Origin: Patescibacteria group bacterium
GTDB taxonomy: Bacteria > Patescibacteriota > Patescibacteriia > UBA9934 > GWF2-40-263
Direction of reading: 5' to 3'
Assembly (NCBI GenBank): GCA_004297215.1
Contig: SCUM01000001.1
Span: forward strand, 219,642 to 283,641
DNA: 64,000 bases
The position numbers and the translations under genes were made by a program. Shown here one piece after another: positions 3,220 through 63,839 of this stretch (within the stretch, counting starts at the first letter, position 1; each line of letters starts with the position of its first letter). A model generated the notes under the pieces. That model was given only the letters and a program-made list of their open reading frames with translations. It did no database searches and was not told the origin of the DNA.

Positions 3220-3579
3220 TTAAGCCTTCACGGTGAGCCGCTTGAGTCGCGGGGTGCGGTGGCTGTTTTTCGGGAGCATGCGCGAGACCGCGCGGGTGAT
3301 CACCTGCGTCGGGTCCTCTTCCATGGCGGTCTTCATCGCCTTGGTGCGTAGGCCGCCTGGGGCGCCGGTGTGGTGGTAGTAGGCCTTCTGCTCAAGCTTG
3401 CGGCCCGTGACCTTCACCTTGGCGGCGTTCACCACCTCCACGATGTCCCCGGCGTCGACGTTGGGGAAGAAATCCACCTTATGCTTGCCGATGAGCAGGT
3501 GCGCGATGCGCGAAGCGAGCCGGCCCGGGGCCTGGCCTTCGGCGTCGATCACGTGCGTGGCGCGGGAAATCTTTGCCAT
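3220..3579 (-). CDS. rplM: 50S ribosomal protein L13
   Basis: 119 aa with GRLASRIAHLLIGKHK, typical of L13. Confidence 0.93.
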   Translation of the reverse strand: MAKISRATHVIDAEGQAPGRLASRIAHLLIGKHKVDFFPNVDAGDIVEVVNAAKVKVTGRKLEQKAYYHHTGAPGGLRTKAMKTAMEEDPTQVITRAVSRMLPKNSHRTPRLKRLTVKA

Positions 3580-3580
3580 A

Positions 3581-3931
3581 TCAGACGAGTTCGATTTGCA
3601 CCATGTCGGCCGCGTCGTTGGCGCGATGGCCGAGCTTCACGATGCGCGTGTAGCCGCCCGGACGGGTGGCATAGCGCGGGGACACCACCTCGAGGATCTT
3701 CTTGACCGCGTTCTCGGTATAGAAGAACGACAGGAGCGCGCGGCGGGCCGCGAGGGTGTTGCGCTTGCCGGTGGTGATCATCTTCTCCACGATCGGCTTT
3801 ACCGCCTTGGCCTTGGCCTCGGTGGTCTTCACCTTTTCGTACAGGATGACGGAAGCCGCAAGATTGCGAAGCATGGCTTCGCGCGGAGCCTTTTCTCGAC
3901 CGAGGATTGCGCCTTTCTTACGGTGTCGCAT
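3581..3931 (-). CDS. rplQ: 50S ribosomal protein L17
   Basis: 116 aa with an MRHRKKG.. N-terminus. Position after rpoA is conserved. Confidence 0.93.
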   Translation of the reverse strand: MRHRKKGAILGREKAPREAMLRNLAASVILYEKVKTTEAKAKAVKPIVEKMITTGKRNTLAARRALLSFFYTENAVKKILEVVSPRYATRPGGYTRIVKLGHRANDAADMVQIELV

Positions 3932-3940
3932 ATGAGGAAA

Positions 3941-4675
3941 TTACTCCTTGGCCGGTTCCTCCACCGGCATTTCTCCGCCTTCGGCGGGAGGATTTTGGAG
4001 CAGGATGGAAAAATGGTCGATGAGGGTGTTGGCGGCGCTCTTCACGGCCTCTTCGGGCGTGATGGTGCCGTCGGTCTCGATGGTCATCGTGAGCTTGTCG
4101 TAGTTGGTGATCTCGCCCACGCGCGTGTTTTCCACCTTGTATCCCACGCTGCGGACCGGGGAGAACAGGGCGTCCACCGCGATGGTGCCGAGCTCGGCGG
4201 CCCCGGAGGGGCGCTCCTCGGTCGGGCTGTAGCCCCGGCCGCGGCCCACGGTGATTTCCATGTCGAGGACCGCCTTGTCATCGGTGAGCGTGGCGATCGT
4301 CAGGCTCGGGTTCGCGATCTCGACGTCCGCGTTCTTCTCGATGTCCTTGGCCGTGACGACCTTCGCGCCCTTCACCTTGAGCGAGAGCTTGACCGGCTCC
4401 TCGCTGTGGGACTTGAGGCGCAGCCCCTTGAGGTTGAGGATCATCTCAAGCACGTCCTCCTTGACCCCGTCAATGGCCTGGAACTCATGCGTGGCGCCCT
4501 TGATGCGGATGGCGGTGACCGCCGCTCCGGTAAGGGACGAGAGCATGACGCGGCGCAGGGCGTTGCCGAGCGTCGTGCCGTATCCGTGGTAACACGGTTC
4601 CACCACGACGACGCCCTCGTTGGGGCGCTCGCCGGCTTCGAAGCGGATGGCGGAGGGGAGAAGGATGTTCTCCAT
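3941..4675 (-). CDS. rpoA: DNA-directed RNA polymerase alpha subunit, N-terminal (assembly) domain only; no alpha-CTD
   Basis: 244 aa that align to alpha-NTD. The ORF ends in an acidic tail, with no linker or CTD. Confidence 0.9.
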   Translation of the reverse strand: MENILLPSAIRFEAGERPNEGVVVVEPCYHGYGTTLGNALRRVMLSSLTGAAVTAIRIKGATHEFQAIDGVKEDVLEMILNLKGLRLKSHSEEPVKLSLKVKGAKVVTAKDIEKNADVEIANPSLTIATLTDDKAVLDMEITVGRGRGYSPTEERPSGAAELGTIAVDALFSPVRSVGYKVENTRVGEITNYDKLTMTIETDGTITPEEAVKSAANTLIDHFSILLQNPPAEGGEMPVEEPAKE

Positions 4676-17105: not shown

Positions 17106-17222
17106 GCGAAAACTTGAAACGTGAAAACTTGAAATCTTGAAAGGAAACGTGAAAACTTTTGAAAAGGCGAAACGGATAAACCGCTTCGTCTTTTTTCATC
17201 GTTTCAAAGTTTCAAGTTTTTC
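17106..17222. terminator. AT-rich intergenic palindromic repeat structure (GAAAACTTGAAA x3 direct + inverted copy) between convergent era and pilD; probable bidirectional terminator
   Basis: Direct and inverted repeats seen in sequence. Confidence 0.5.
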
Positions 17223-18012
17223 ACCCAAAAAACCCCATGTACCACGTGAGGATCGGTCGTCCGAACAGCAGCATCACGAGCGTTGCCAGGGTAAGGAACG
17301 TGCCGAACGGGACCTGCGTCTGCCAGGCCGCCTTCTCGCGCTGGATGAGGAAGAGCCCCACGACGGCACCCAGGGCATAGGCGATGAACAGGGCGCCCAG
17401 CGCGTCCTTCCAGCCGAGCATGAATCCCATGAGCACGCCCAGGCGGATGTCCCCGCCGCCGATCCAGCGGCCTTTGGAGAACAGGTATTGGGCCAGGAAG
17501 AATCCGCCCAGGATCAGCCCTCCCGACAGGAGATCGTACGGATGGAAGGTGCCAACCCACACGTTGAAGGCGAACGCGATCGCCATGGCCGGGACCGTGA
17601 ACCGATCCAGGATGAGGTAATACTTGAGGTCGTAGACGAACAGGAGCATCAGGGAGGTGACGAACGCCAGGTCGCGCAGGAAGAACGCCACCGACTGCAT
17701 CGGGGAAAGCTCCGGCGGCAAGCCGAATCCGTACATGAACCGGAGGTAAAAGACGAAAAACAGCAGCCCGGTGCCGAATTCCACCAGCGGGTACTGCCAG
17801 GAGATGCGCTCGCCGCAGCTTCGGCACTTGCCGCGCAGCGCGATGAAGCTCAAGACCGGGATCAGGTCCTTTGGGGCGATTTGCGCCTGGCAGGACAGGC
17901 AACGCGAACGCCCGCCAAAAGAACTCCCGGCGTTCGTGCGCAGGATGACCACGTTGAGGAAGCTCCCGACCGAGAGCCCGATGACGAAGGCCAAGAGCGC
18001 GCCCATCATCAT
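17221..18012 (-). CDS. pilD: type IV prepilin peptidase (A24 family)
   Basis: MMMGALLAFVIGLSVGSFLNVVILR, a Cys pair and polytopic TMs. Internal start abuts the upstream stop. Confidence 0.8.
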   Translation of the reverse strand: MMMGALLAFVIGLSVGSFLNVVILRTNAGSSFGGRSRCLSCQAQIAPKDLIPVLSFIALRGKCRSCGERISWQYPLVEFGTGLLFFVFYLRFMYGFGLPPELSPMQSVAFFLRDLAFVTSLMLLFVYDLKYYLILDRFTVPAMAIAFAFNVWVGTFHPYDLLSGGLILGGFFLAQYLFSKGRWIGGGDIRLGVLMGFMLGWKDALGALFIAYALGAVVGLFLIQREKAAWQTQVPFGTFLTLATLVMLLFGRPILTWYMGFFG

Positions 18013-18014
18013 AG

Positions 18015-18506
18015 CTAGAGGCGGCAGGCGCCGGCCGAGAGCCCGTCCGGACTCGCGCAGTTGAGGCCCTTCGCGAGGCCGGCCTCGGGCCAATTCCCTT
18101 CGAGCTCGAATTGGATGCGGTACGTGGAATCTTCCCGGATGGAGAGGTAGCACAACGCATCCGCCTCGCCGGCGCAGGAGGCCAGGCCATCGAGCCCCTT
18201 GACGACCGTGGCCGGGACCCTGCGCAGGAACGTGGCGCCGGCGCAGGAGGCGGCGAACCCCTCTTCGCCCAAACATCCGGTCTCAAGCACGCCCAGCGCG
18301 ATCCCTTCCCCTCCCGGCGGGTAGGCGTTCTTCTGGTTGAAGTAATTCTCCATGGCCGCCTGGACCTGGCGAACGTTAGAAAGACGCACGGCGTCCCGCG
18401 CCTGCGCGCGAGCCGCGTTCACCTCGACCGCGGCGAACGCGCCGATGAGGCCGATCGCCAGCAGGCCGGCCAGGATCTGGATGATCTTGCGCTGTCGTTC
18501 CTCCAT
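18015..18506 (-). CDS. pilin-like protein with non-canonical N-terminus (no G/FxxxE prepilin motif) and C-terminal Cys pairs
   Basis: Hydrophobic N-helix followed by ARDAVRLSNVRQVQAAMENYF...YP, a pilin-like signature. Start at the internal Met. Confidence 0.45.
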   Translation of the reverse strand: MEERQRKIIQILAGLLAIGLIGAFAAVEVNAARAQARDAVRLSNVRQVQAAMENYFNQKNAYPPGGEGIALGVLETGCLGEEGFAASCAGATFLRRVPATVVKGLDGLASCAGEADALCYLSIREDSTYRIQFELEGNWPEAGLAKGLNCASPDGLSAGACRL

Positions 18507-18527
18507 AGGGTCTGGATGAAGAATGTG

Positions 18528-18581
18528 GGATGAAGGATGTAGGATTTCTTTGCGTATCCTACATCCTACATCCTTCATCCT
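18528..18581. promoter_or_regulatory. 19-bp perfect inverted repeat GGGATGAAGGATGTAGGAT / ATCCTACATCCTTCATCC(C) with heptamer duplications, between response-regulator stop and pilin start
   Basis: Seen directly. It overlaps the last codons of the response regulator. Confidence 0.45.
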
Positions 18582-18969
18582 ACATTCTAACCCGTTCCTT
18601 TACGAGCCGCTCCACGTGCGCGCGCGTTTCCGTCGGCGTGACATGGCCCTTGAGCAGGTATCCGTCCGTGCCGCAGGCAAGCGTCTCGCGCACATGCTCG
18701 CGGTCCCCGCGCGCCGTGAGCGCGACCACGACGATGCCGGAGCTGGTCGGGTCTTCCTTGAGCGCGCGGACGAGCGCGAACGCCTCCGGCACCGTATCGG
18801 CGTCGAGGAGCATCGCGTCCGGAGCCTTCTTCGCGACGAGCTTGCGCGCCTCCTTCGCGTCCGGCGCGAGGCGCGCGACCCACCGGGCCGCCTCGAACCG
18901 CCGCGCGTAGATGCCGGCGAACGTCGCGTCCGGATCAACGATGAGCAGCTGGCGCTTGCGGGCAGGCAC
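18580..18969 (-). CDS. stand-alone response regulator receiver (CheY-like) protein
   Basis: 129 aa with LLIVDPD, MLLDAD, VVALTARGD and the GTDGYLLKG receiver motifs. Confidence 0.7.
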   Translation of the reverse strand: MPARKRQLLIVDPDATFAGIYARRFEAARWVARLAPDAKEARKLVAKKAPDAMLLDADTVPEAFALVRALKEDPTSSGIVVVALTARGDREHVRETLACGTDGYLLKGHVTPTETRAHVERLVKERVRM

Positions 18970-18970
18970 A

Positions 18971-20083
18971 CTACTCGATGTCGCGCATCGCGAGCCCGAT
19001 CGACACGGCCATGCGCGGTCCGATCTCGTCGAGCACCGGACGCAGGTCCGCCGGGTAGGACACCCGCGCCCACGGGTCGCCGCGATAGACGTTCAGGTTG
19101 AGCGAGGCGGAGAGGAACTCGGGCACGCCCGGGAGATGCGCGCTGCCGCCGGTCACCACCACCTTTTCCACCTTCTTGAACTCCGTGAGCTCCATGCGCG
19201 CGTACAGCTGGAGCGCGTACTGGATCTCGTGGAGGATGGGTCCCATCGCAGCCTCCACCGCGGGCGGGAGCTTGCCTCCGGGCATGGCCGGCTGGTTCCC
19301 CAGGTCGGTCTTGATCTGTTCGGCCTCCGATTCGGGCACCGACATCTGCTCCATGATCTTCTTCGTGACGGACGATCCTCCCACGTTGATGGACCTGGTG
19401 AGGAACGGGATGCCTTTCTCGACCACGGTGATGTTCGTGCGCCCGAACCCGATGTCGAGGATGAGCACCGCGCTCTTGTCCTTGCCGATCAGGCTGCGGA
19501 TGAGGGCGAAGGACTCGGTATCGATCGCCTGGAGCTCGAGCTTGGCCGTGCGGAAGATCTCGATGTACTTCTGCACGAGCGTCTTGGCCGCGCCCGTGAC
19601 GAGCACGCGCACGTAGTCGGACGGCTTGCCAGCCGGAACCGTTTGTTCTTTTCCTGCGGCCTTCGTGCCTGAGGCCTTCCCCGCCTGCAGAGGATCGATG
19701 AACGTCGAATAGGTGATCATCTCCGAGATGGGAAGCGGGGTGAGCTTGGCCACCTGCGCGTCGATGAGCGGTTTCATCTCCTTCTCGTCCTTGCGCCGCG
19801 GCACCGCCACGATCGTCGAAAAGATCGAGGACAGCGGGAGCGCCGCCATGGCCTTGTTCGTCTTCACCCCGGCGCGCTTGCACAGTTCGGCAAGCGTCTC
19901 CCCGGCGCCCTTGACGTCCTCGAACGGCGAAACCACGGCCTCTCCCGGCTTGCGCTCGGAATAGCCGTAGGTCAGCAGCGTGGCGCGGCCCTTCTCGTTG
20001 GAAAGCTCCACCACCTTGACCCCCCCGGCGCCGACGTCCACGCCGAGGAAACTTTGCTTTTTCGGAGCGCCGAACAGGGCCAT
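18971..20083 (-). CDS. pilM: type IV pilus assembly protein PilM (actin-like ATPase)
   Basis: SFLGVDVGAGGVKVVELS N-terminus and the actin fold ~350 aa. Confidence 0.75.
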   Translation of the reverse strand: MALFGAPKKQSFLGVDVGAGGVKVVELSNEKGRATLLTYGYSERKPGEAVVSPFEDVKGAGETLAELCKRAGVKTNKAMAALPLSSIFSTIVAVPRRKDEKEMKPLIDAQVAKLTPLPISEMITYSTFIDPLQAGKASGTKAAGKEQTVPAGKPSDYVRVLVTGAAKTLVQKYIEIFRTAKLELQAIDTESFALIRSLIGKDKSAVLILDIGFGRTNITVVEKGIPFLTRSINVGGSSVTKKIMEQMSVPESEAEQIKTDLGNQPAMPGGKLPPAVEAAMGPILHEIQYALQLYARMELTEFKKVEKVVVTGGSAHLPGVPEFLSASLNLNVYRGDPWARVSYPADLRPVLDEIGPRMAVSIGLAMRDIE

Positions 20084-27910: not shown

Positions 27911-28921
27911 ATGGCAACGCTCGACTGGAACAGCCTGCCCCGCCCGATCGTGGCGCTCTCGCCCATGGCCGACATGACCGACTCGGCGTTTTGCCGCATC
28001 GTGAAGTCCATGGCGTCGCCCGTCGTGTTCCGCGAGATGGTCTCCTCCGAGGCGGTCGTGCGCGGCAACGACAAGACGCTCGGAATGACCGGCATCCATC
28101 CGGCCGAGCGCCCGCTCGTACAGCAGCTGTTCGGCTCGGACCCGGCCGTGATGGCCGAGGCGGCGCGCGTCATCTACGAGTCTCACGGGCCCGAGGCGTT
28201 CGACGTCAACATGGGCTGCCCGGTGTACAAGATCGTGCACAATTTCAACGGCGCGGCGCTCATGAAGGAGCCGGCGCGCGCCGCCGCGATCGTGAAGGCG
28301 ATCCGCGAGGCCGTGCCCGTCCCTGTTTCCGTGAAGATCCGCACCGGCTGGAGCGACCCCGCGGACTGCCTCGCCTTCGCGCCTGTGCTCGAACAGGCCG
28401 GCGCGGCGCTCATCACCATCCACGGCCGCACCAAGGCGCAGGGCTACGCCGGCGTTTCCGACTGGGCGCGCATCGCCGAGGTGAAGAGGCTGGTCTCGAT
28501 CCCCGTGCTCGCCAACGGCGATGCGCACACCGCGCCGAGGGTCGTTGAGATGCTCGAGGCCACCGGAGCCGACGGCGCCATGGTGGCGCGCGGCGCGCTC
28601 GGCAACCCGTGGATCTTCGCGCAGGCGGACGACCTGCTCGCCGGACGTCCTCCGAGAGAGGTCACGACGGAGGAGCGGATTCGCGTCGTGAAGGCTCACG
28701 CCAGGCTTCACGTCGAACAGTACGGGGACCCTTCGACTTCACTCAGGGTCGGGCTGAGCCAGTCGAAGCCCGAACGAGGAGTCCACACCTTCCGCAAACA
28801 CCTCTCGTGGTACTTCAAGGGCCAACGCGGGGCGAAGCTTTTCCGCGAAAAGCTCATGCGGGTTTCCACGCTTGCAGAGCTTGATGCGGCGCTGGATGCC
28901 GTTTCCGCATCGGCGCCCTGA
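27911..28921 (+). CDS. dusB: tRNA-dihydrouridine synthase
   Basis: TIM-barrel Dus motifs (LSPMADMTD, NMGCP, KIR.G). Confidence 0.85.
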   Translation: MATLDWNSLPRPIVALSPMADMTDSAFCRIVKSMASPVVFREMVSSEAVVRGNDKTLGMTGIHPAERPLVQQLFGSDPAVMAEAARVIYESHGPEAFDVNMGCPVYKIVHNFNGAALMKEPARAAAIVKAIREAVPVPVSVKIRTGWSDPADCLAFAPVLEQAGAALITIHGRTKAQGYAGVSDWARIAEVKRLVSIPVLANGDAHTAPRVVEMLEATGADGAMVARGALGNPWIFAQADDLLAGRPPREVTTEERIRVVKAHARLHVEQYGDPSTSLRVGLSQSKPERGVHTFRKHLSWYFKGQRGAKLFREKLMRVSTLAELDAALDAVSASAP

Positions 28922-34623: not shown

Positions 34624-37176
34624 TTATTTCCCTCCCACGTCCGACTGGATGGGCGCGGCGGCGGCGATAGACGTGCGTTCCAGGATTTCCGCCTCCACGA
34701 GACGCTTGTCGCGGCCGTACTTGAGGCGTGAGAGCTCCTTGATCGCCTCGGCAAGCTCGACGTTTCCCTTGGGCGCGGGGGTGAAGCCCATCGTGAACGG
34801 CTTCACCGAAGCGTTATCCACGATCATCTTGGTATACCAGGTGAACTTGTCGCTGTTCTGCATGTCGTACCCGGAAAAGTCCGGCGCGTAGATCTTCTCG
34901 AAGATCTCCACGTCCTCGGGACCGATGCGGCCCACCATCATGGTGCCGGCGTTGCCGAACACGGCGTCCTTGATCTTCGTGTCGTTGTCCTTCACCAGCT
35001 GTCCGACATATTGGTGGGCGATGATGAGGTCGAGCCGGTACTTGCGCGCCTCCGACAGGATGGTGGCGATCGAATCCGTGATGAAATTCTGGAACTCGTC
35101 GATGTAGAGGTAGAAATCGCGACGTTCGCTCTCCGGCATGTCGGCGCGGGCGAGCGCGGCCATCTGGAGCTTGGACACGATGATGAGGCCCAAGAGCTCC
35201 GCGTTGACGTCGCCAGTCTTCCCCTTCGACAGGTTCACGAGCAGGATCTTCCCCTCATCCATCACCTCGCGGAAATCGAAGCTCGACTCCTGCTGGCCGA
35301 TGATGTTGCGCATCATCTCGTTCTCCACGAACCGGCCCACCTTGGAAATGAGGTATCCGAGCATCTCGGACTTGTGGAAGTCGCTCGTCTTGTCCACCTC
35401 GTTCACCCAGTAGGACATCACCACCGGGTCCGTGATCTTCGCCCGCCACTTGTTCTGGAAATCCACGTCCGAGAACATGCGCGGAATCTCGATGATGCTC
35501 CCCGCCTGCTCCGGATCGGACATGAGGGTGAGCATCGCGTTGCGCATGTGGTGCTCGAACATGGGCCCGATCATCTCCGGCGGGAACAGCTTGTAGAAGA
35601 TGGCGATCATCTCCTGCACGGCCATGTCCTTCTGGCTCGGATCCTTGCATTCGAGCATGTTGAGCCCCATGGGCCGGTCCGTGTCCGACGGGCAGAAATG
35701 CACGACGTCGTCCACGCGCTCCTTGGGGATGTTCGCGAGGAGATGCTCGATGAGGTCGCCGTGCGGGTCCACCACGGCCACGCCGCGGCCGGCCTTGATG
35801 TCCTGGACGGCGAGCGAGGCGATCAGCTGGGTCTTTCCCGCGCCGGACTTGCCCATGACGTACATGTGGCGCTGGCGGTCGGCCTCCTTGATCCACACCG
35901 GGGTCTTCACCCCGCGGTACACGTTATATCCCATCTCGAGCACGCCGCCGTCCTGCGGACCGGTGGGCACGTTGCTTGGCACGGCGCCGGCGCGCGCCCC
36001 GAGCCACTGGATGTTGGGGGTCTCGGTCCAGGGCGTGGGCATGTGCCAGAGCGTGGCCATCTCCTCGGCGTTGAGCACGATCCTCGCCTTCTCGTCGAAC
36101 GCGCGCGCGATGAACTGGCGCACGATCTTCGTCTTCGACCGGGGCACGCGCTTCTCGAAGGAATTGCCGTACTCGTAGATGTTGAACGGCGAAAAGGCGT
36201 TCAACATGTTGGACAGCGTCGACTGCGCGCTCTGCGCGTCCGGTCCGCTTACCATGAGGCGGATGTTGGCCTCCATCCCGGCCTTGCTCGCCTTTTCCTC
36301 GAGCCCCTTCACCAATTGCTCTTCCTGCGGCGACAGCTTGTGCTCCCTGGGCGGCTCCTGCCCTTCCTTCGCGGACGCGAATCCGGAGAGCTGCGCGACG
36401 CTGCTCCCTTCGCCCTTGCGCTTGCCCTTGATCGCCTCCTCAAGCGTCATCCCCTGCTGCATGTTCTTCGCGATGCGCACGCCGGCCCTGCGCCAGCCGC
36501 CCGGGGCGGAGCGGACGACGAACTGGAACGCGGCCCCGCTCCCCTCGGGGATCTTGGCGATCGCGTTGGTGATGGCGGAGAGCGGATCCTTGTCCTGGCC
36601 GCGGTACGTCTTGATCGGGAACACGCTGTCGCGGCGCAGCGCGAGGTGCGCGCCAAGGATGACGCCGGTAGGCGCGAAGATGTTATAGTCCTCGACTTCT
36701 TCCACGTGCGCGTCGTGATAGCTGGCGGAAAAGGTCTGCTCGACGAACGCCTGCAGGTGGCGGGGAGCGGCCACATAGAACCGGATGAGCTTCTCATGGC
36801 TCACGATCTCGAAGGACATCTCCTCATGGTTCCCTTTGAGCCAGGTGAAGAACCCGTGACGGGGCTTGAGCCCGCCGATCGCGGAGAACATCGTTTCCGC
36901 CGCGGCCACGGCCTCGATGAGCTGCTCCTTGGTGCCCGTGCGCGTGCTCTCCTCCTCGTGCCGGAACTTCGGGAGGCTCACGGACAGCACCACGTGGTCG
37001 AACCCGCCGCGGCGGGCGCGGATCCGACGGCGGATGAGCAGGAGGACGAGCCCGGCGAACGACAGGATGCCGACGCCAACCGCCGCCACCCACCCGTACT
37101 GGGCGATGGCGTCGTTTGCCGCCGACGTGTCGACGAAGGACGGGGGAACGTCCGTTTCGAGGCCGAACTGGAACAT
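34624..37176 (-). CDS. membrane-anchored P-loop ATPase, type IV coupling protein-like (TraD/TraG/VirD4, AAA_10-type)
   Basis: N-terminal TM. Walker A VMGKSGAGKTQ followed by VAVVDPHGDL (T4CP-like), and Walker B LYIDEFQNF. 850 aa. Confidence 0.5.
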   Translation of the reverse strand: MFQFGLETDVPPSFVDTSAANDAIAQYGWVAAVGVGILSFAGLVLLLIRRRIRARRGGFDHVVLSVSLPKFRHEEESTRTGTKEQLIEAVAAAETMFSAIGGLKPRHGFFTWLKGNHEEMSFEIVSHEKLIRFYVAAPRHLQAFVEQTFSASYHDAHVEEVEDYNIFAPTGVILGAHLALRRDSVFPIKTYRGQDKDPLSAITNAIAKIPEGSGAAFQFVVRSAPGGWRRAGVRIAKNMQQGMTLEEAIKGKRKGEGSSVAQLSGFASAKEGQEPPREHKLSPQEEQLVKGLEEKASKAGMEANIRLMVSGPDAQSAQSTLSNMLNAFSPFNIYEYGNSFEKRVPRSKTKIVRQFIARAFDEKARIVLNAEEMATLWHMPTPWTETPNIQWLGARAGAVPSNVPTGPQDGGVLEMGYNVYRGVKTPVWIKEADRQRHMYVMGKSGAGKTQLIASLAVQDIKAGRGVAVVDPHGDLIEHLLANIPKERVDDVVHFCPSDTDRPMGLNMLECKDPSQKDMAVQEMIAIFYKLFPPEMIGPMFEHHMRNAMLTLMSDPEQAGSIIEIPRMFSDVDFQNKWRAKITDPVVMSYWVNEVDKTSDFHKSEMLGYLISKVGRFVENEMMRNIIGQQESSFDFREVMDEGKILLVNLSKGKTGDVNAELLGLIIVSKLQMAALARADMPESERRDFYLYIDEFQNFITDSIATILSEARKYRLDLIIAHQYVGQLVKDNDTKIKDAVFGNAGTMMVGRIGPEDVEIFEKIYAPDFSGYDMQNSDKFTWYTKMIVDNASVKPFTMGFTPAPKGNVELAEAIKELSRLKYGRDKRLVEAEILERTSIAAAAPIQSDVGGK

Positions 37177-41882: not shown

Positions 41883-42432
41883 CCCTACGCCGGATCGCGC
41901 CGAATGCCACCATCGCGACGATGGGGAGCAGGGCCCACACGCTCTTGCCCCCGTCGCTCGTGAAGACGGTGCGCGTGAGCGGCGACAGCCAGGGCGACGT
42001 GTCGGCCGGGAAGAAGGACAGGGTGACGCTGATGAGCAGGCCCGCGTGCAGGACGGAAAACGCGGCAACTTGCATGAAGCTCCCCTGCTCGGCCGACGCG
42101 CCGAACGCCTTGAGGAGCGCGGACTGCGACAGGAGGAAGAACAGCAGGATGAACGCGCCCAGGAACACGCTCACCTTGAGCGCGAAGGTGTCGTTCACGG
42201 AGATGCTCGCCTGGAACTCGCTGATGAACGGCACGTACTTCACCACGGCGAGCGCCATGTAGATCGCCACCATCATCACGAGGATGCGGTCGCGGCCGAG
42301 GCTGATGCCGTAGAGCAGCGAGGAAACGAGGAAGAACAGGATGATGAACACATCCCACGACGGCTGCAGCCAGTTGATGCTCGACAGGTACTGGGCGGCC
42401 TGGTGCGTGTCGATGACGACGGTCTGTAGCAT
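41875..42432 (-). CDS. hypothetical polytopic membrane protein
   Basis: 185-aa ORF with 5-6 hydrophobic helices. Confidence 0.5.
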   Translation of the reverse strand: MLQTVVIDTHQAAQYLSSINWLQPSWDVFIILFFLVSSLLYGISLGRDRILVMMVAIYMALAVVKYVPFISEFQASISVNDTFALKVSVFLGAFILLFFLLSQSALLKAFGASAEQGSFMQVAAFSVLHAGLLISVTLSFFPADTSPWLSPLTRTVFTSDGGKSVWALLPIVAMVAFGAIRRREA

Positions 42433-42488
42433 GGATCCCCCTTATGGGCTGAAGTATAACACAAAATGGCCTCTCGGCCATTTCGGGA

Positions 42489-53692: not shown

Positions 53693-53832
53693 AAAAATTA
53701 TCCTTCCCTACCACCTACCCACTACCCCCTAACTTATGCGCAAACGCCCCGAGAGCCAGGGCTCTAGGGGGTATGTGAACGGATTGTGGGGACAGGCTAT
53801 CGGGAATCAGGCGAGTTGTCCACAATCTGATG

Positions 53833-53861
53833 TTGACGGAAAACACTTTTTAGCATATGCT
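53833..53861 (+). promoter_or_regulatory. sigma70-like promoter TTGACG-17nt-TATGCT
   Basis: Hexamers seen upstream of the tRNA region. Confidence 0.4.
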
Positions 53862-53912
53862 GTTCTCATCCAGGTGAGGTTCATGGTTGAATCCTCTCGG
53901 TGTCACATAAAA

Positions 53913-53942
53913 CGACCCTCTGAAATGAGGGGCGTTTTTTGT
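53913..53942 (+). terminator. hairpin + T6 between promoter and tRNA (attenuator or end of a short transcript)
   Basis: CGACCCTC-TGAAAT-GAGGGGCG followed by TTTTTT. Confidence 0.45.
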
Positions 53943-53962
53943 TCGTACCCTGGGCAGATCGT

Positions 53963-54038
53963 GGGCCCATGGAAGTAGTGGCAACTTCACCTGGATTGAC
54001 ACCGGGAGTCGCGGGTTCGATTCCCGCTGGGTCCACCA
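53963..54038 (+). tRNA. tRNA with atypical anticodon loop ATTGACA (nominal anticodon UGA, Ser-reading) but class-I architecture and alanine-like acceptor identity (G3:U70, A73)
   Basis: Hand-folded. Acceptor GGGCCCA/TGGGTCC, D-stem GAAG/CTTC, anticodon stem CCTGG/CCGGG, T-arm GCGGG-TTCGATT-CCCGC, and CCA. Followed by a terminator. Confidence 0.6.
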
Positions 54039-54046
54039 GCCCGGGA

Positions 54047-54086
54047 CCAACCGCCCCGCCCATTTGGGCGGGGTTGGAACCCTTTT
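54047..54086 (+). terminator. GC-rich hairpin (CCAACCGCCCCGCCC-ATTT-GGGCGGGGTTGG) + T-run
   Basis: Seen directly after the tRNA. Confidence 0.6.
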
Positions 54087-54301
54087 CCATCAAAAGTCGA
54101 GGATCTCTCTTCCGAGAAGGCCGTCTCGGTGTTCCTATCCTTCATTTCAAAAAGATTGTCTCCATCGGATCCAAAATCTGCGTTCAAATCACTCAAACGG
54201 CTTCTGGCGCTCAATACGAAAAAGAACTACAAGGATTTCGAACTTGCGCAACGAAAGATCGTGTTCTTGAATGTCACGTAAACTGCCGCGCGCTCCCACA
54301 C

Positions 54302-54814
54302 CTATTTCTCCCCGTACTCGATCACGATCACGTCGTGGTCGCGCATCACGAGATTCTCGAACTTCGTCGACGGCTTGCCGTTGACCGTCATCGTGACCGC
54401 ATGCGAGTCATCCGCCACCTTGTCGAGAATCTGCGTGGCGGAGAACGGCTTGCCCCATACGGCGAAGAAGTCGCCGAGGGTGAAAGGCTGCTCGGTGGGA
54501 TACTCTATGTGAATCTTGCCGGTGGCGTCGTGCGTGTGCAATGCGCGCATGCATGAGGCATCGACCCCGATGTCGGCGGGAAGCTCCACGCGCTCTCCGT
54601 CCACGAGGATGGCGAGCTCGGGATGCACGTGATAGCTGATCGCGGACCCGTGCGTGACGCAGGCCATGGCCAGCTCGCGGGTCGACGACTCGGGTTCGGA
54701 GATTTCCAGAGCAGGTTCGGGCACGGAGGGTTCCGGCGCTTCCGACTTCAAGGCGAAGACGAGCAGGGTGACGACCGCGAGGACGGGGATGCCGTACGTG
54801 AGGATCGGTTTCAT
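54302..54814 (-). CDS. hypothetical secreted/membrane-anchored protein (HTHD motif)
   Basis: 170 aa with a signal anchor, next to the copper cluster. Confidence 0.5.
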   Translation of the reverse strand: MKPILTYGIPVLAVVTLLVFALKSEAPEPSVPEPALEISEPESSTRELAMACVTHGSAISYHVHPELAILVDGERVELPADIGVDASCMRALHTHDATGKIHIEYPTEQPFTLGDFFAVWGKPFSATQILDKVADDSHAVTMTVNGKPSTKFENLVMRDHDVIVIEYGEK

Positions 54815-54816
54815 GT

Positions 54817-57672: not shown

Positions 57673-58758
57673 TCAGGTGTTCGGTTCGACCACCATCGTC
57701 CCACGGAACATCCCCATCGAACAGGTGAACGGGTATCGGCCGGGGCGCTGCGGGGTGAAGGAGAAGACGTTCTCGCCAGGCTTCAGTTGCGCCCGGATCC
57801 CTCCTTCCTTGAACAGGAGGGTGCCGCCGCATCCCACTTCGTTGCCGCGTTCCACCTCCCAACGCACCGGGACGCCGGCTCGCACCGTGAGCACGTCCGG
57901 CTCGTACGTCCCGTACCGCGTGACTTCCATCTGGATGAGCTGTTCGCCGTTCGCGAGAGAGCTTGAGGAGATTGAGGGGCTTGAGGAGCTTGAGGCTGCC
58001 ACCGGGGCGATCCCAAGAAGCGCTAGCCCATTCTGCGCGTTGAAGATGCCAAGCGTCGCGATGAGGATGCCGGCCGCCGTGGAAAAATGCTTTGAGCGCT
58101 TCTTTCCGGAAGAGGCGGCCATGCCCACGGCGATGAGCGGCGGCGCGGACCCGAGCGCGAACAGCGCCATCACGAGGGCGCCTTGCGTGGGACTTCCCGC
58201 GGTAGCGGCGTACAGCTGCATGGACTGGGTGAATCCGCACGGGAGGAAGAACGTGGCGCCGCCAAGCAACAACGGGTCGCTCGAGAGCTTCGCGACGAAT
58301 GCCGGCGTCTTGAACGAGAGCAGGCGCCCCGGGACGAGTCCGAGCATCTTGAGGCCGTAGGCGAGCATCAGGGCGGCCACGACGAGCACCAACGCGCCCG
58401 ACATGGCCGGAGAGAGTGATAGGGATCCGCCGATCCATCCGAGCGCGGCGCCCAGCGTGGCGAACGTGAGGATGCGTCCGGCATGGAACTGCAGGTGAAA
58501 GGACAGGGGTTTGGCCGAGGCGGCGACGAGCGCCGTGACGAGCGCCCCGCACGAGGAGAGCGTGGACGCAAGCCCGATGACGAGCACGGATCCCAGGCCC
58601 ACGGCCGCGCCGACTTGCGGCGAGAAGCGCGCGAGGCCGGTGCGGTCGAGAATCAGGTACGTGCCGAGGATGGCGAGCGCGAACGCGCCGACGCGTTTCC
58701 AGTCGGTCGTGCGCGGCGCGTCCGGCGTGCAGCAGTCGGGTAGCTGATGTTCAGACAT
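57673..58758 (-). CDS. DsbD_2-like (two conserved Cys) polytopic membrane domain fused to C-terminal cupredoxin-like domain
   Basis: TM Cys residues (SCGALV, LPCGF). The C-terminal ~100 aa have a beta-sandwich pattern with FTCSMGMF. Start overlaps the copA region. Confidence 0.5.
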
Positions 58759-62307: not shown

Positions 62308-62817
62308 TTATTTCCCTTTCACCCGTTCCACCCCGTTGAGCGCCGAGATGGTGGCCGCGACCTCTTCCGGCACCTTCGCCTTCCAGTCGCCCCCTGCTTT
62401 CATCATCGCGCGTACGTCCGTCGCGCTGATGCCCGGCACCTCCTTGATGTCCTTCACCTCCTTGCCGAGCGCGACGAATGGCGCCTTGGTGGCCGGGTTG
62501 CCGGTCCACACCTGGTGCACCTCGCCTGCCTTTTCCAACACGGCCTTGGCCCACGCCTCATCAGAAGCCATGTCCGGGACCATGACGAACTCCACGTCGA
62601 AGTTTGGGATGATGTCCTCGCCCTGCAGCGCGCGCTGGATCATGTCGCGGCGCTCCTCGGCCGTGAACGGGTTTTCGTTCGTGCCGCTCTTGTCGGAGGA
62701 ACCGATCGCCACTACCAGCTTGCCGCATAGCTTGGCCATTCCCTTCACGACCAGCATGTGGCCGTTGTGGAACGGCTGGAAACGGCCTGGGAACAGGCAG
62801 GTGAATTTGGTAGGCAT
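62308..62817 (-). CDS. nadM: nicotinamide-nucleotide adenylyltransferase (archaeal-type, cytidylyltransferase fold)
   Basis: GRFQPFHNGH HxGH motif. 169 aa. Confidence 0.8.
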   Translation of the reverse strand: MPTKFTCLFPGRFQPFHNGHMLVVKGMAKLCGKLVVAIGSSDKSGTNENPFTAEERRDMIQRALQGEDIIPNFDVEFVMVPDMASDEAWAKAVLEKAGEVHQVWTGNPATKAPFVALGKEVKDIKEVPGISATDVRAMMKAGGDWKAKVPEEVAATISALNGVERVKGK

Positions 62818-62826
62818 ATGATGAGA

Positions 62827-62931
62827 GGCGATAAGGCCGCAGGCGATAAGGCCGCAGGCGATAAGGCCGCAGGCGATAAGGCCGCAGGCGATAAGGCCGC
62901 AGGCGATAAGGCCGCAGGCGATAAGGCCTAA
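62827..62931. repeat. 7 contiguous 15-bp tandem units GGCGATAAGGCCGCA (last unit variant) abutting nadM start codon
   Basis: Counted directly: 6 perfect units plus 1 variant. The unit equals the REP L-arm subunit. Confidence 0.9.
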
Positions 62932-62969
62932 GCGCTGAAGCCTTGTCCGCCTGAGGCCTAAGGCCTGAC
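62932..62969. repeat. REP-like R-arm copy (GCGCTGAAGCCTTGTCCGCCTGAGGCCTAAGGCC); supplies stop codon of DUF362 gene
   Basis: Family core. Confidence 0.8.
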
Positions 62970-63839
62970 AAAAAATTTTATGGACCTCTTCCAGTCCGTC
63001 TCGCCGACCACGTCGATCCGCGTTTCATCCAACACACCGTACCCCCGCTGCGACGCCAGGGCAAGATAGCGGATGCCCGAGGGATCGATGCCCATGAGCC
63101 GGCAACCGATCGAATCGACCGCGACCGCGTCCGTGCCGGCGAGGGCGAGCTTCATCTCGACCGGGTCGCCATGCGTGGGTCCGTCCCCTTCCATGGCGAG
63201 GAAGGCGTCCACGACGCACAGGTCGGGCTTGGTCTGGCGCAGGAGCTCCGCGATCGTCTCGTGGTGGGCGTCGTTCCCCTGCGCGTGCAGGTACGGAGCG
63301 CGCGCCCAGATCCGGCCCGAAAGCCCGATGCTGGAAGCCGCCACCCACGTGCCGATGGTCCAATTCTTCACGCACAAGGAGACGCCGACGTCGCGATGGG
63401 TCTTCATGACCGTCAGGTCGACCGTAAAATCGGATTCCGCGACCGTTTTCGCGATTCCCATGGGCCCGAGCGATCCGTCGCGCTTCACGTACGTGCCCGG
63501 CACGGTCGCGTCGTCGTTCAGGTCAAACAGCCGGACGTCCGGGTATTCGCCAGGCAGGTTCTCGTACCCGAAATGGCGGAACGCGGCCTTGGTGCCGTGA
63601 TACGAGGCGTCGGCGATGACGACGGGCGCGGCCGTCTTCGAACGGACGACGTCGAGCACGGCCCGTACCGCGTCCGCATGCGTCGAGGCGAGCTGGTTCA
63701 AGTGGTGCACCAGGTTTGGCTTGATGAGTACCGAACGGGCCGACACGAGCCCCGCGAGGACATCGGGAGGCAACGCCTCGATGGCTCGTCGGACGTTTTC
63801 CCTGCGGTTTTCCCCACGGATGACAGATACCTGTACCAT
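62958..63839 (-). CDS. DUF362-domain protein
   Basis: VLIKPNLV motif. Start at the internal Met. Confidence 0.5.

Follow-up and report, generated by a model that had tools for sequence, protein, structure and literature searches.

The 64,000-nucleotide (nt) stretch of DNA analyzed here (contig SCUM01000001.1 of a Patescibacteria group bacterium, positions 219,642 to 283,641; hereafter the window, whose own numbering is used throughout) has a G+C content of ~63–65%, and its relatives by UvrB homology belong to Candidatus Uhrbacteria. Within a 609-bp gap flanked by uvrB and a Cu-ATPase operon, both encoded on the minus strand, lies a 76-nt RNA gene on the plus strand (53963–54038), from which uvrB diverges 270 bp upstream. 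As detailed below, this RNA is genuine, selectively maintained and tRNA-shaped, and it combines the determinants of alanine charging with a seven-nucleotide loop that appears ill-suited to decoding.

Read from its 5′ end, the RNA consists of an acceptor strand (GGGCCCA), the linker nucleotides UG, a D-arm (GAAG, UAGUGGCAA, CUUC), a single A, a 5-bp anticodon-type stem (CCUGG/CCGGG) closing the loop AUUGACA, a 4-nt variable loop (AGUC) in place of a class II long arm, a T-arm (GCGGG, UUCGAUU, CCCGC), the second acceptor strand (UGGGUCC), A73 at 54035 and an encoded CCA at 54036–54038. Both the D-stem and the T-stem are perfectly paired, and the cloverleaf is the minimum free energy (MFE) as well as the centroid fold. 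ARAGORN calls exactly this span a tRNA-Ser with the anticodon tga, and a match to the Rfam tRNA model (RF00005) covers 53963–54035 with 41.7 bits (gathering score 29), well below the 64.4 bits of the ordinary tRNA-Gln of the window. The Rfam model of transfer-messenger RNA (tmRNA, RF00023) has no match at its gathering score anywhere in the 64-kb window. A sequence-only reading of this DNA had proposed a tRNA-like gene here, and its coordinates are borne out by these analyses, as are its indexing of the loop and its reading of A32, C37, the nominal UGA, G3:U70, A73, the CCA end, the perfect D- and T-stems and the short variable loop. The off-by-one loop index that it had considered as a possible error did not emerge, and no model run (ARAGORN, Rfam) assigns a normal loop to the RNA.

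Of the conserved tRNA core, U8, G18–G19 and a standard T-loop are present, and positions 14, 32 and 37 hold non-canonical nucleotides; the U at position 14, where A is near-universal, is an oddity not listed in the earlier reading. The alanyl-tRNA synthetase (AlaRS) identity set, G3:U70 with A73 and G2:C71, is present and is kept in a sister species, the G3:U70 wobble being the major AlaRS determinant. The RNA thus resembles bacterial tRNA-Ala in G3:U70, A73, G1:C72 and G2:C71, in its class-I size and in a similar T-arm; it differs from it in lacking the NGC anticodon within a canonical loop (Y32, U33, R37) that tRNA-Ala needs (AUUGACA compared to UUUGCAC/A), in U14, in a C:G pair at 4:69 and, by reading of the sequence, in lacking the usual D-arm (GCUCAGCUGGGAGAGC). 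With bacterial tRNA-Ser(UGA) it shares the nominal anticodon only: its variable arm of 4 nt, A73 and G3:U70 are all unlike tRNA-Ser, and recognition by seryl-tRNA synthetase (SerRS) is not expected, as the bacterial enzyme requires the long variable arm as its main recognition element. Stabilization of the A36:U1 pair requires a purine, as a rule a modified one, at position 37. Overall, these features support the earlier description of a non-canonical, class-I-shaped gene that has the AlaRS identity set and whose loop is not suited to decode in the normal way.

To place the gene in its lineage, loci of a sister species were retrieved through UvrB homologues, i.e. independently of the RNA and its loop, from three ENA samples (L001, L002 and L003); the metagenome-assembled genome Candidatus Uhrbacteria RIFCSPHIGHO2_01_FULL_63_20 (L044) has the same sequence. 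The sister species shares the gene order of the window (UvrB 83% identical) and carries the 76-nt gene, with an identical AUUGACA loop, in all four independent assemblies. Between the two species, the RNA is 93.4% identical, compared to 68.3% over 1374 four-fold degenerate sites in the orthologous flanking genes (P ~1e-7) and 52–66% in the upstream intergenic DNA. The five differences comprise a compensatory A:U to G:C exchange of a D-stem pair, a C:G to U:G change in the anticodon-type arm, one D-loop base and one variable-loop base; every one of them is structure-neutral, 21/21 base pairs are retained in both copies, and G1:C72, G2:C71 and G3:U70 are identical, in a two-sequence comparison that by itself carries no shuffle-based power. 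This pattern indicates that the RNA is under strong purifying selection.

Such conservation, together with the identical loop, therefore excludes both a sequencing error at 53999–54000 and a decaying paralogue, two explanations that the sequence-only reading had kept in play. The low Rfam tRNA score and the several non-canonical positions would in themselves fit decay of, or an assembly error in, an ordinary tRNA; the identical loop in four independently assembled copies, a conservation far above neutral with changes that preserve the structure only, and the presence of the same loop in distant lineages (see below) refute it, and we give this explanation next to no weight.

The AUUGACA loop is found on comparable RNAs elsewhere in the candidate phyla radiation (CPR). 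A scan of GTDB with one genome per species, using a loop-containing pattern of arm plus T-loop, returned 40 places, mostly tmRNA 3′ ends or coding DNA; two of them, L030 (Patescibacteria H32-bin004) and L007 (Peregrinibacteria), hold RNAs of 72–73 nt in which a 7-bp acceptor stem with G3:U70, followed by A73 and CCA, is combined with a very small D hairpin and an arm whose loop is AUUGACA. A metagenome scan added, among the matches listed (at least 120 loci), the compact members L062, L077, L078 and L130, and, with less certainty, L048/L049 and L134/L136. The compact RNAs are cloverleafs of 65–73 nt; the same heptamer caps the arm in L007, L030, L062, L077 and L078, and these five and L130 carry the loop on a 3–9-bp arm, joined to the same 7-bp acceptor, G3:U70, A73 and CCA. 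The loop had first been likened to that of a tRNA-Ala with two bases transposed, a view that is not supported, since the whole heptamer recurs in the smaller, tmRNA-domain-like RNAs of distant CPR lineages.

ARAGORN calls none of the compact members. The Rfam tmRNA model aligns each of them over its positions 1–374, with the ~320-nt interior replaced by 13–29 nt, at 29–49 bits (L077, with 49 bits, exceeds the gathering score of 47), and by the Rfam models tmRNA is closer than tRNA for L007, L030, L048, L062, L077, L078 and L134. In an Infernal-made structural alignment of seven compact members, from which the window lineage was left out, 96.6% of the cells are paired and 16/22 pairs show compensatory changes, a value reached in 0/500 shuffles and far above that of slid registers; compensatory covariation is seen in all four helices, and G1:C72, G2:C71 and G3:U70 are invariant (7/7). 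The covariance model built from these seven members (hereafter R2) ranks the window RNA first of 74 matches in a search over 438 kb (57.4 bits, E ~4e-11), with the sister-species copy at 55.0 bits and the window tRNA-Gln at 15.3. Moreover, a helix between leader and trailer of the precursor, starting 0–2 nt past the CCA, accompanies several members: it measures 7 bp in the window, 8 bp in L001 and 7–8 bp in L077, L007 and L062.

Among the matches of the metagenome scan were also numerous ends of ordinary tmRNAs and at least 22 distinct ordinary tRNA-Val(GAC) genes, whose loop UUGACAU holds the ATTGACA string by chance; a register shift of the window RNA to tRNA-Val(GAC) was considered and rejected, because the shifted stem cannot pair. 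Viral contigs and annotated phages yielded only tmRNA and tRNA 3′-end fragments and no compact member, and a loop-agnostic pattern gave no matches on viral contigs; a phage origin was rejected on these grounds.

In more distant relatives of the window (L004–L006, UvrB ~72% identical), synteny is kept, but only ~110 bp lie upstream of uvrB, with no tRNA or tRNA-like match; the comparison of orthologous loci proposed in the earlier reading thus finds the same gene in the sister species and none in L004–L006, and the cassette is therefore lineage-specific. The L077 contig, which its Lon protease affiliates with Gracilibacteria, Peregrinibacteria and Patescibacteria, presents a similar picture: its relatives (Lon 79–82% identical) have lon and a convergent cation-efflux gene 10–52 nt apart with no RNA between them, and L077 bears at this site a ~230-nt insertion containing the RNA. 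By this comparison, both lineages tested carry the gene as a lineage-specific insertion. The genes adjoining it are unrelated between members (Lon, SecY, Ddl-Ddl, toxin–antitoxin, SLH, UvrB/Cu-ATPase), with no conserved protein partner beside it across them.

Several further observations concern these loci. In L030 (6228–6260) and L007 (199–240), a second, shorter acceptor/T-arm-like element ending in CCACCAGG lies ~40 nt downstream of the compact RNA, preceded by a hairpin (AAAAGAGACTC..GAGTCTCT) that is conserved, with the flanking GGCAATTT, between these distant CPR lineages; the element looks like a degenerate minihelix copy without the arm. L077 (~1270–1296, 113 nt upstream of the RNA) and L078 (51 nt downstream) contain partial direct copies of the 5′ half, from the D hairpin to the loop, which stop exactly at ATTGAC(A) (exact cores of 14 and 13 nt, p ~0 by shuffling) and may be recombination or duplication scars at the loop. 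In L048 (1720–1790) and L049, 44 nt past the RNA, a trailer holds a perfect 14–15-nt complement of the arm (TTGTCAATGCTTGCC), followed by a small hairpin, a 9-nt complement of the 3′ side of the arm and a terminator, so that in this member the arm's own hairpin may give way to a pairing with the trailer; the L048 locus lies among Gp49/HTH and PIN-TRAM toxin–antitoxin genes. Full-length tmRNAs of the ordinary type, from Nitrospinaceae and an abundant marine group (L011, L018, L022, L035, L041 and at least 45 or so metagenome loci, e.g. L047 and L050–L052; tag ANDYDVAVAA) carry ATTGACA ~10 nt before the GGAC that precedes the T-arm, which we take as chance or as a lineage-specific helix-2 sequence; the heptamer thus occurs in the equivalent region of standard tmRNAs as well. 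Finally, a tRNA cluster in L138 (Ser-gct, Pro-tgg, Met-cat; 3372–4239) includes a 66-nt ATTGACA-containing tRNA-like element (4097–4162) that ARAGORN does not call and that scores 35.6 bits on R2, with a poor acceptor stem.

The nominal UGA anticodon raises the question of how UCA is read in the host. Codon 752 of the Cu-ATPase is TCA and encodes the first serine of MAFSS, which aligns with MAASS of rice HMA4 (8q73) and MAMSS of A. fulgidus CopA (3j09). In the syntenic genes of the window and the sister species, four TCA codons align with the serine codon TCG and four are TCA in both, and UvrB has TCG and TCC at its invariant serines and its two TCA codons in variable regions. TCA accounts for 8.5% and 5.1% of the TCN codons of the two RNA-bearing species, compared to 0–3% for ACA, CCA and GCA in the same genes, and is thus not avoided relative to other A-ending codons. 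These alignments indicate that UCA is read as serine in the host, and some serine-inserting tRNA with U34 must therefore exist; the 76-nt RNA would not be this decoder, because SerRS needs the long variable arm that it lacks. A reassignment of UCA to alanine was rejected, as TCA stands at the conserved Cu-ATPase serine and alternates with TCG, and codon usage gives no sign of an efficient misreading of serine as alanine; misreading at a low level could escape a comparison of sequences. Separately, a serine-rich linker of a DsbD/cupredoxin protein (57673–58758, minus strand; codons 256–265) takes four serines from the rare TCA in both species, which is an unusual local concentration of this codon.

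The features of the locus are collected in Table 1. The AlaRS encoded in the window is of 687 aa, compared to 875 aa in E. coli, with the catalytic/tRNA-recognition domain and the SAD motif and apparently without the C-Ala domain; Pfam and Rfam scans found neither an SmpB nor a tmRNA gene within the 64-kb window.

Table 1. Positions, strands and supporting evidence of the RNA gene, the AlaRS gene and the signals around the RNA
Feature	Positions	Strand	Evidence or remark
tRNA-like RNA gene, 76 nt	53963–54038	+	ARAGORN, Rfam tRNA, cloverleaf MFE fold, sister-species copy, R2 model
G3	53965	+	Read from the sequence; paired with U70 at 54032
7-nt loop A32 U33 U34 G35 A36 C37 A38; nominal anticodon UGA at 53997–53999	53995–54001	+	Sequence
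Alanyl-tRNA synthetase gene, 687 aa	6700–8763	-	Pfam tRNA-synt_2c (2.4e-140) and tRNA_SAD; putative charging partner, not linked
Sigma-70-like promoter match TTGACG-17-TATGCT	53833–53861	+	9/12 consensus; weak
Leader segment ATCCAGGTG	53868–53876	+	Complement of the 5′ arm strand plus A32 and U33; p ~0.003
Leader segment CGGTGTCA	53898–53905	+	Complement of TGACACCG (3′ part of the loop and 3′ arm strand)
A-tract, hairpin (CCCTC..GAGGG) and T6; bidirectional, terminator-like	53910–53940	both	Terminator scan
Leader strand CCTGGGC of the precursor helix	53949–53955	+	Pairs with 54039–54045
Trailer strand GCCCGGG of the precursor helix, directly after CCA	54039–54045	+	Pairs with 53949–53955
GC-rich hairpin CCAACCGCCCCGCCC / GGGCGGGGTTGG, then TTTT; probable terminator	54047–54086 (hairpin 54047–54077)	+	Sequence

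Upstream, one promoter-like match was found where 0.6 are expected by chance, and it is conserved only in part in L001. Between this site and the RNA stands the terminator-like hairpin, which is symmetric, obtains a terminator score on both strands and shows covariation of its stem (CCCTC/GAGGG in the window, CCCC/GGGG in L001); its role may be to shield uvrB from the minus-strand operon upstream, to attenuate transcription of the RNA, or both. The strong hairpin downstream of the gene, which carries a compensatory C to T / G to A change in L001, is probably the terminator of the RNA gene, and was missed by the terminator scan because only four T follow it. The suggestion in the sequence-only reading that the gene sits behind its own promoter and a hairpin with T6 and ends in a strong terminator therefore stands in part: the hairpin and T6 are real but bidirectional, the promoter amounts to a 9/12 match, and the downstream hairpin, although strong, failed the scan. 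The precursor helix is maintained in L001 through U:G to C:G and G:C to G:U changes. As for the two leader segments, ATCCAGGTG belongs to a ~14-bp pairing between leader and RNA in the MFE fold that is degraded in L001, so that its significance is doubtful, and CGGTGTCA is kept in L001 (p ~0.03) inside a conserved block (TCTCGGTGTCAC); a pairing of the leader with the RNA through these segments is suggestive but too little conserved to rely on. A leader peptide was rejected, as L001 does not share the in-frame ATG at 53883.

Other observations around the gene are as follows. Homology with the sister species ends just past the terminator of the RNA (54080–54816), and the window holds there an extra gene of 170 aa (54302–54814, minus strand; G+C at third codon positions (GC3) 0.85, hydrophobic N-terminus, no Pfam match) without a counterpart in the sister species; an insertion or deletion thus directly adjoins the tRNA-like gene. 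The best-conserved block upstream of uvrB in both species is an imperfect inverted repeat (TTGTGGGGAC ... GTCCACAA, then ATCTGATGTTG; 53785–53832), which may be a uvrB operator, possibly of SOS type, and a further conserved hairpin (CCCCGAGAGCC..GGCTCTAGGGG) lies at 53754–53780. Elsewhere in the window, four open reading frames (1332–2769, 17204–19883, 41885–42481 and 62561–62971) have a GC3 of 0.42–0.52, compared to 0.8–0.9 in real genes, and no Pfam match, being either miscalled frames or recently acquired DNA, and a coupling-protein-like gene of a type IV secretion system is located at 34624–37176.

Among known RNAs with unusual loops or shapes, the Streptomyces tRNAProX family, whose members mistranslate deliberately and keep a functional anticodon loop, and the non-proteinogenic cell-wall tRNA-Gly of staphylococci, which keeps its cognate anticodon, are comparable in being lineage-restricted extra tRNA-like genes whose identity elements and loop depart from the standard code role; unlike in these, the loop of the window RNA is a fixed non-canonical heptamer common to much smaller RNAs. 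The eukaryotic mascRNA (RF01684), which is processed from MALAT1, resembles the compact cloverleaf of L077, with its 3-bp D hairpin and no linkers, in shape only (37.7 bits, below the gathering score of 42.5), and no G3:U70/CCA logic is implied by this match. With tmRNA (SsrA), the window RNA shares the G3:U70 alanine identity, the acceptor/T-arm module, an encoded CCA and, presumably, the T-stem GCGGG/CCCGC of the E. coli molecule; at ~76 compared to ~360 nt, it has no mRNA-like domain, tag frame or pseudoknots.

The closest parallels are tag-less tmRNA relatives, a known kind of RNA that is barely studied. Mitochondrial tmRNA seems to have no tag reading frame, two plastid tmRNA genes of ~65 bp lack a coding sequence (CDS), and the tag-less form of mycobacteriophage DS6A is reported to inhibit endogenous tmRNA in E. 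coli; among 6765 Patescibacteria genomes, 5252 standard tmRNAs and 3 entries labelled 'Standard NoCDS' are counted (PMC11915505). Tag-less forms are also credited to Mao et al. 2009, as cited in PMC11915505. We located the DS6A gene at 28478–28560 of JN698994 (83 nt, G3:U70); it scores 43.2 bits on the Rfam tmRNA model, within the range of the compact CPR RNAs (29–49 bits), and 39.5 bits on R2. The likeness to the DS6A type extends to the tRNA size, the 7-bp acceptor stem, G3:U70, a T-arm of tmRNA/tRNA-Ala type, a CCA-type 3′ end, the missing message part and a loop-closed arm in place of tmRNA helix 2; the window RNA likewise falls within ~65–85 nt, with a tRNA-like domain, a closed arm and no tag frame. 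DS6A itself differs in having no AUUGACA loop and a longer, branched arm. Nothing on the AUUGACA motif or on tRNA-like RNAs in Patescibacteria was found in the literature searched, and as far as can be told the conserved loop, the cloverleaf family and its fully tRNA-shaped Uhrbacteria version have not been described before.

Taken together, these results favor a reading, to which we assign a probability of roughly 0.45, in which the 76-nt RNA would be a tRNA-like RNA that accepts alanine, does not decode and is akin to tag-less tmRNAs; of the options named in the earlier note, a tRNA-like RNA with a non-decoding role fits best. We propose that the RNA receives alanine from the window-encoded AlaRS, since this enzyme needs no more than G3:U70 with A73 and disregards the anticodon. 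A32, C37 and U14 would make it a poor decoder, and the AUUGACA loop may serve as a binding handle for a partner instead of an anticodon. The RNA would then act in a codon-independent, alanine-dependent step, most likely at stalled ribosomes. It would either work in the manner of a tag-less tmRNA or be a competitor of tmRNA for AlaRS, EF-Tu, SmpB or the ribosome, an activity reported for the tag-less mini-tmRNA of DS6A (PMC11915505). A use of the UGA in the loop as the stop codon of a one-residue tag was rejected on geometrical reasoning, as an arm of 5–9 bp cannot put the loop in the decoding centre of the A site with its own acceptor end in the P site. A bolder version of this model, which we consider improbable, would posit an uncharacterized CPR class of tRNA-sized tmRNA descendants or analogues with an invariant AUUGACA loop, charged by AlaRS and adding alanine to nascent chains on stalled ribosomes without a template (as tag-less rescue, or as alanine tailing on 70S or split 50S), the loop docking a dedicated protein, the Uhrbacteria version re-acquiring a full tRNA shape, and the genes moving as small intergenic cassettes.

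Several points weigh against the relationship to tag-less tmRNAs. Charging, expression and a ribosomal role of the RNA are predictions. The best match of the window RNA within the Rfam clan is tRNA and not tmRNA, and it is nearer to tRNA in architecture, being called only by ARAGORN and the Rfam tRNA model: it has U8/G9 linkers, a 4-bp D-stem with a 9-nt D-loop, a 5-bp arm and a 4-nt variable loop, whereas the compact members have a mini D hairpin (3–4 bp, 4-nt loop) and no linker or variable nucleotides. Its normal D-arm, 5-bp arm and variable loop should give an ordinary tRNA L-shape; on tmRNA, SmpB occupies the position of the anticodon arm, and such a shape would leave no obvious room for it. 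On R2, tRNA-Val(GAC) genes chosen for ATTGACA and CCACCA reach 35–51.5 bits, leaving the window RNA a margin of ~6 bits, and all members other than the sister-species copy were found with loop-requiring patterns, so that the invariance of the loop is inflated by ascertainment. The family is also rare and patchy, its GAUUGACAC form occurring in only 3 species representatives of the GTDB scan, and the absence of the gene from the syntenic sites of relatives, in both lineages tested, is more what an accessory or mobile gene would show than what is expected of a core rescue factor. An ordinary tmRNA, moreover, is present in most Patescibacteria (0.78 per genome; PMC11915505).

The alternatives rank, in our view, from a regulatory or decoy RNA through a non-ribosomal alanine donor and a Ser-to-Ala mistranslator to a relic of a mobile element or attachment (att) site. 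Conceivably, the loop is bound by a protein or another RNA and aminoacylation is irrelevant, the RNA serving, for example, to lure away an anticodon nuclease or toxin, or to feed back on its own leader as a ligand. The invariant heptamer would fit such a role, as would the two arm-complementary leader segments that lie just ahead of the terminator-like hairpin in the window (the sister species retains one of them), the arm complement in the L048/L049 trailer and the toxin–antitoxin neighborhood of L048; yet most members have no arm complement, the sister species has the longer of the two window complements only in degraded form, the L048/L049 cases may be chance matches of a different tmRNA-like type, and the strict conservation of G3:U70, A73 and CCA points to charging and not to binding alone, so that we regard a purely regulatory role as unlikely. 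Charging would be accommodated by a dedicated alanine donor modelled on the staphylococcal tRNA-Gly, with the loop keeping the RNA out of translation; the alanine could go into Fem/MurM-type branching of cell-wall peptides, alanyl-phosphatidylglycerol synthesis or RqcH-type tailing on split 50S subunits. The combination of an alanine identity set with a non-decoding loop speaks for this proposal, such enzymes mostly read the acceptor end, and envelope genes adjoin some members (a Ddl-Ddl fusion in L062, SLH and lytic transglycosylase proteins in L030 and L078), which is a weak pointer. Against it, no Fem, MprF or RqcH gene is found in the window or beside any member, a conserved neighbor is lacking altogether, and the seven fixed loop bases would go unexplained unless a partner reads the loop; a donor role accordingly ranks second and is also unlikely.

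The lead idea of the sequence-only reading, that an alanine-charged RNA is delivered by EF-Tu to the A site, where UGA pairs with UCA/UCG and causes regulated or low-level Ser-to-Ala mistranslation, draws on the full cloverleaf with U33, G18–G19 and a standard T-loop, on its acceptance as a tRNA by ARAGORN and Rfam, on the alanine identity set with an AlaRS gene in the window, and on the precedent of tRNAProX. It has to contend with A32, C37 and U14, which are poor for decoding, and with the occurrence of the heptamer in RNAs of 65–73 nt with 3-bp D-stems, no linkers and 7–9-bp arms, which are unlikely elongators; some hosts of compact RNAs have a G+C content of 34–46%, where UCA should be common and its misreading costly, and in the two gene-bearing species TCA is not avoided and sits at a conserved functional serine. 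The codon evidence thus lends mistranslation no support, and we rate it as improbable. Finally, the RNA could be cargo or a relic of a mobile element or integration site, with ATTGACA acting as DNA, either as an integrase crossover core within the anticodon-type stem-loop or as an outward -35 box. Its insertion in two independent syntenic contexts, the partial copies beside L077 and L078 that end at ATTGAC(A), the degenerate second copies downstream of L007 and L030, and the extra gene abutting the window copy are consistent with mobility, and tRNA and tmRNA genes are classic integration targets (PMC11915505). No integrase or transposase stands beside any copy, no members were found on viral contigs, and covariation in four helices with invariant charging determinants indicates selection on the RNA itself; mobility would explain the distribution of the gene and not the conservation of the RNA, and hence complements the other explanations, while as an explanation in its own right it is quite improbable.

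Overall, the label tRNA-Ser(UGA) that annotation pipelines give to this gene is almost certainly wrong, and it would mislead inferences of tRNA sets, codon capacity and code changes in CPR genomes. Until now, tag-less relatives of tmRNA have counted as rare curiosities, known from mitochondria, two plastids, one phage and three Patescibacteria database entries. If the RNA did misread UCA, it would be a natural Ser-to-Ala mistranslator; if, as we favor, the family acts on stalled ribosomes, it would provide a compact, testable system for the tRNA-like half of tmRNA alone. The recurrence of a fixed seven-base loop together with the alanine identity set, from 65-nt mini-cloverleafs to a full tRNA shape, suggests an alanine-carrying RNA that works outside normal decoding in these minimal-genome bacteria.

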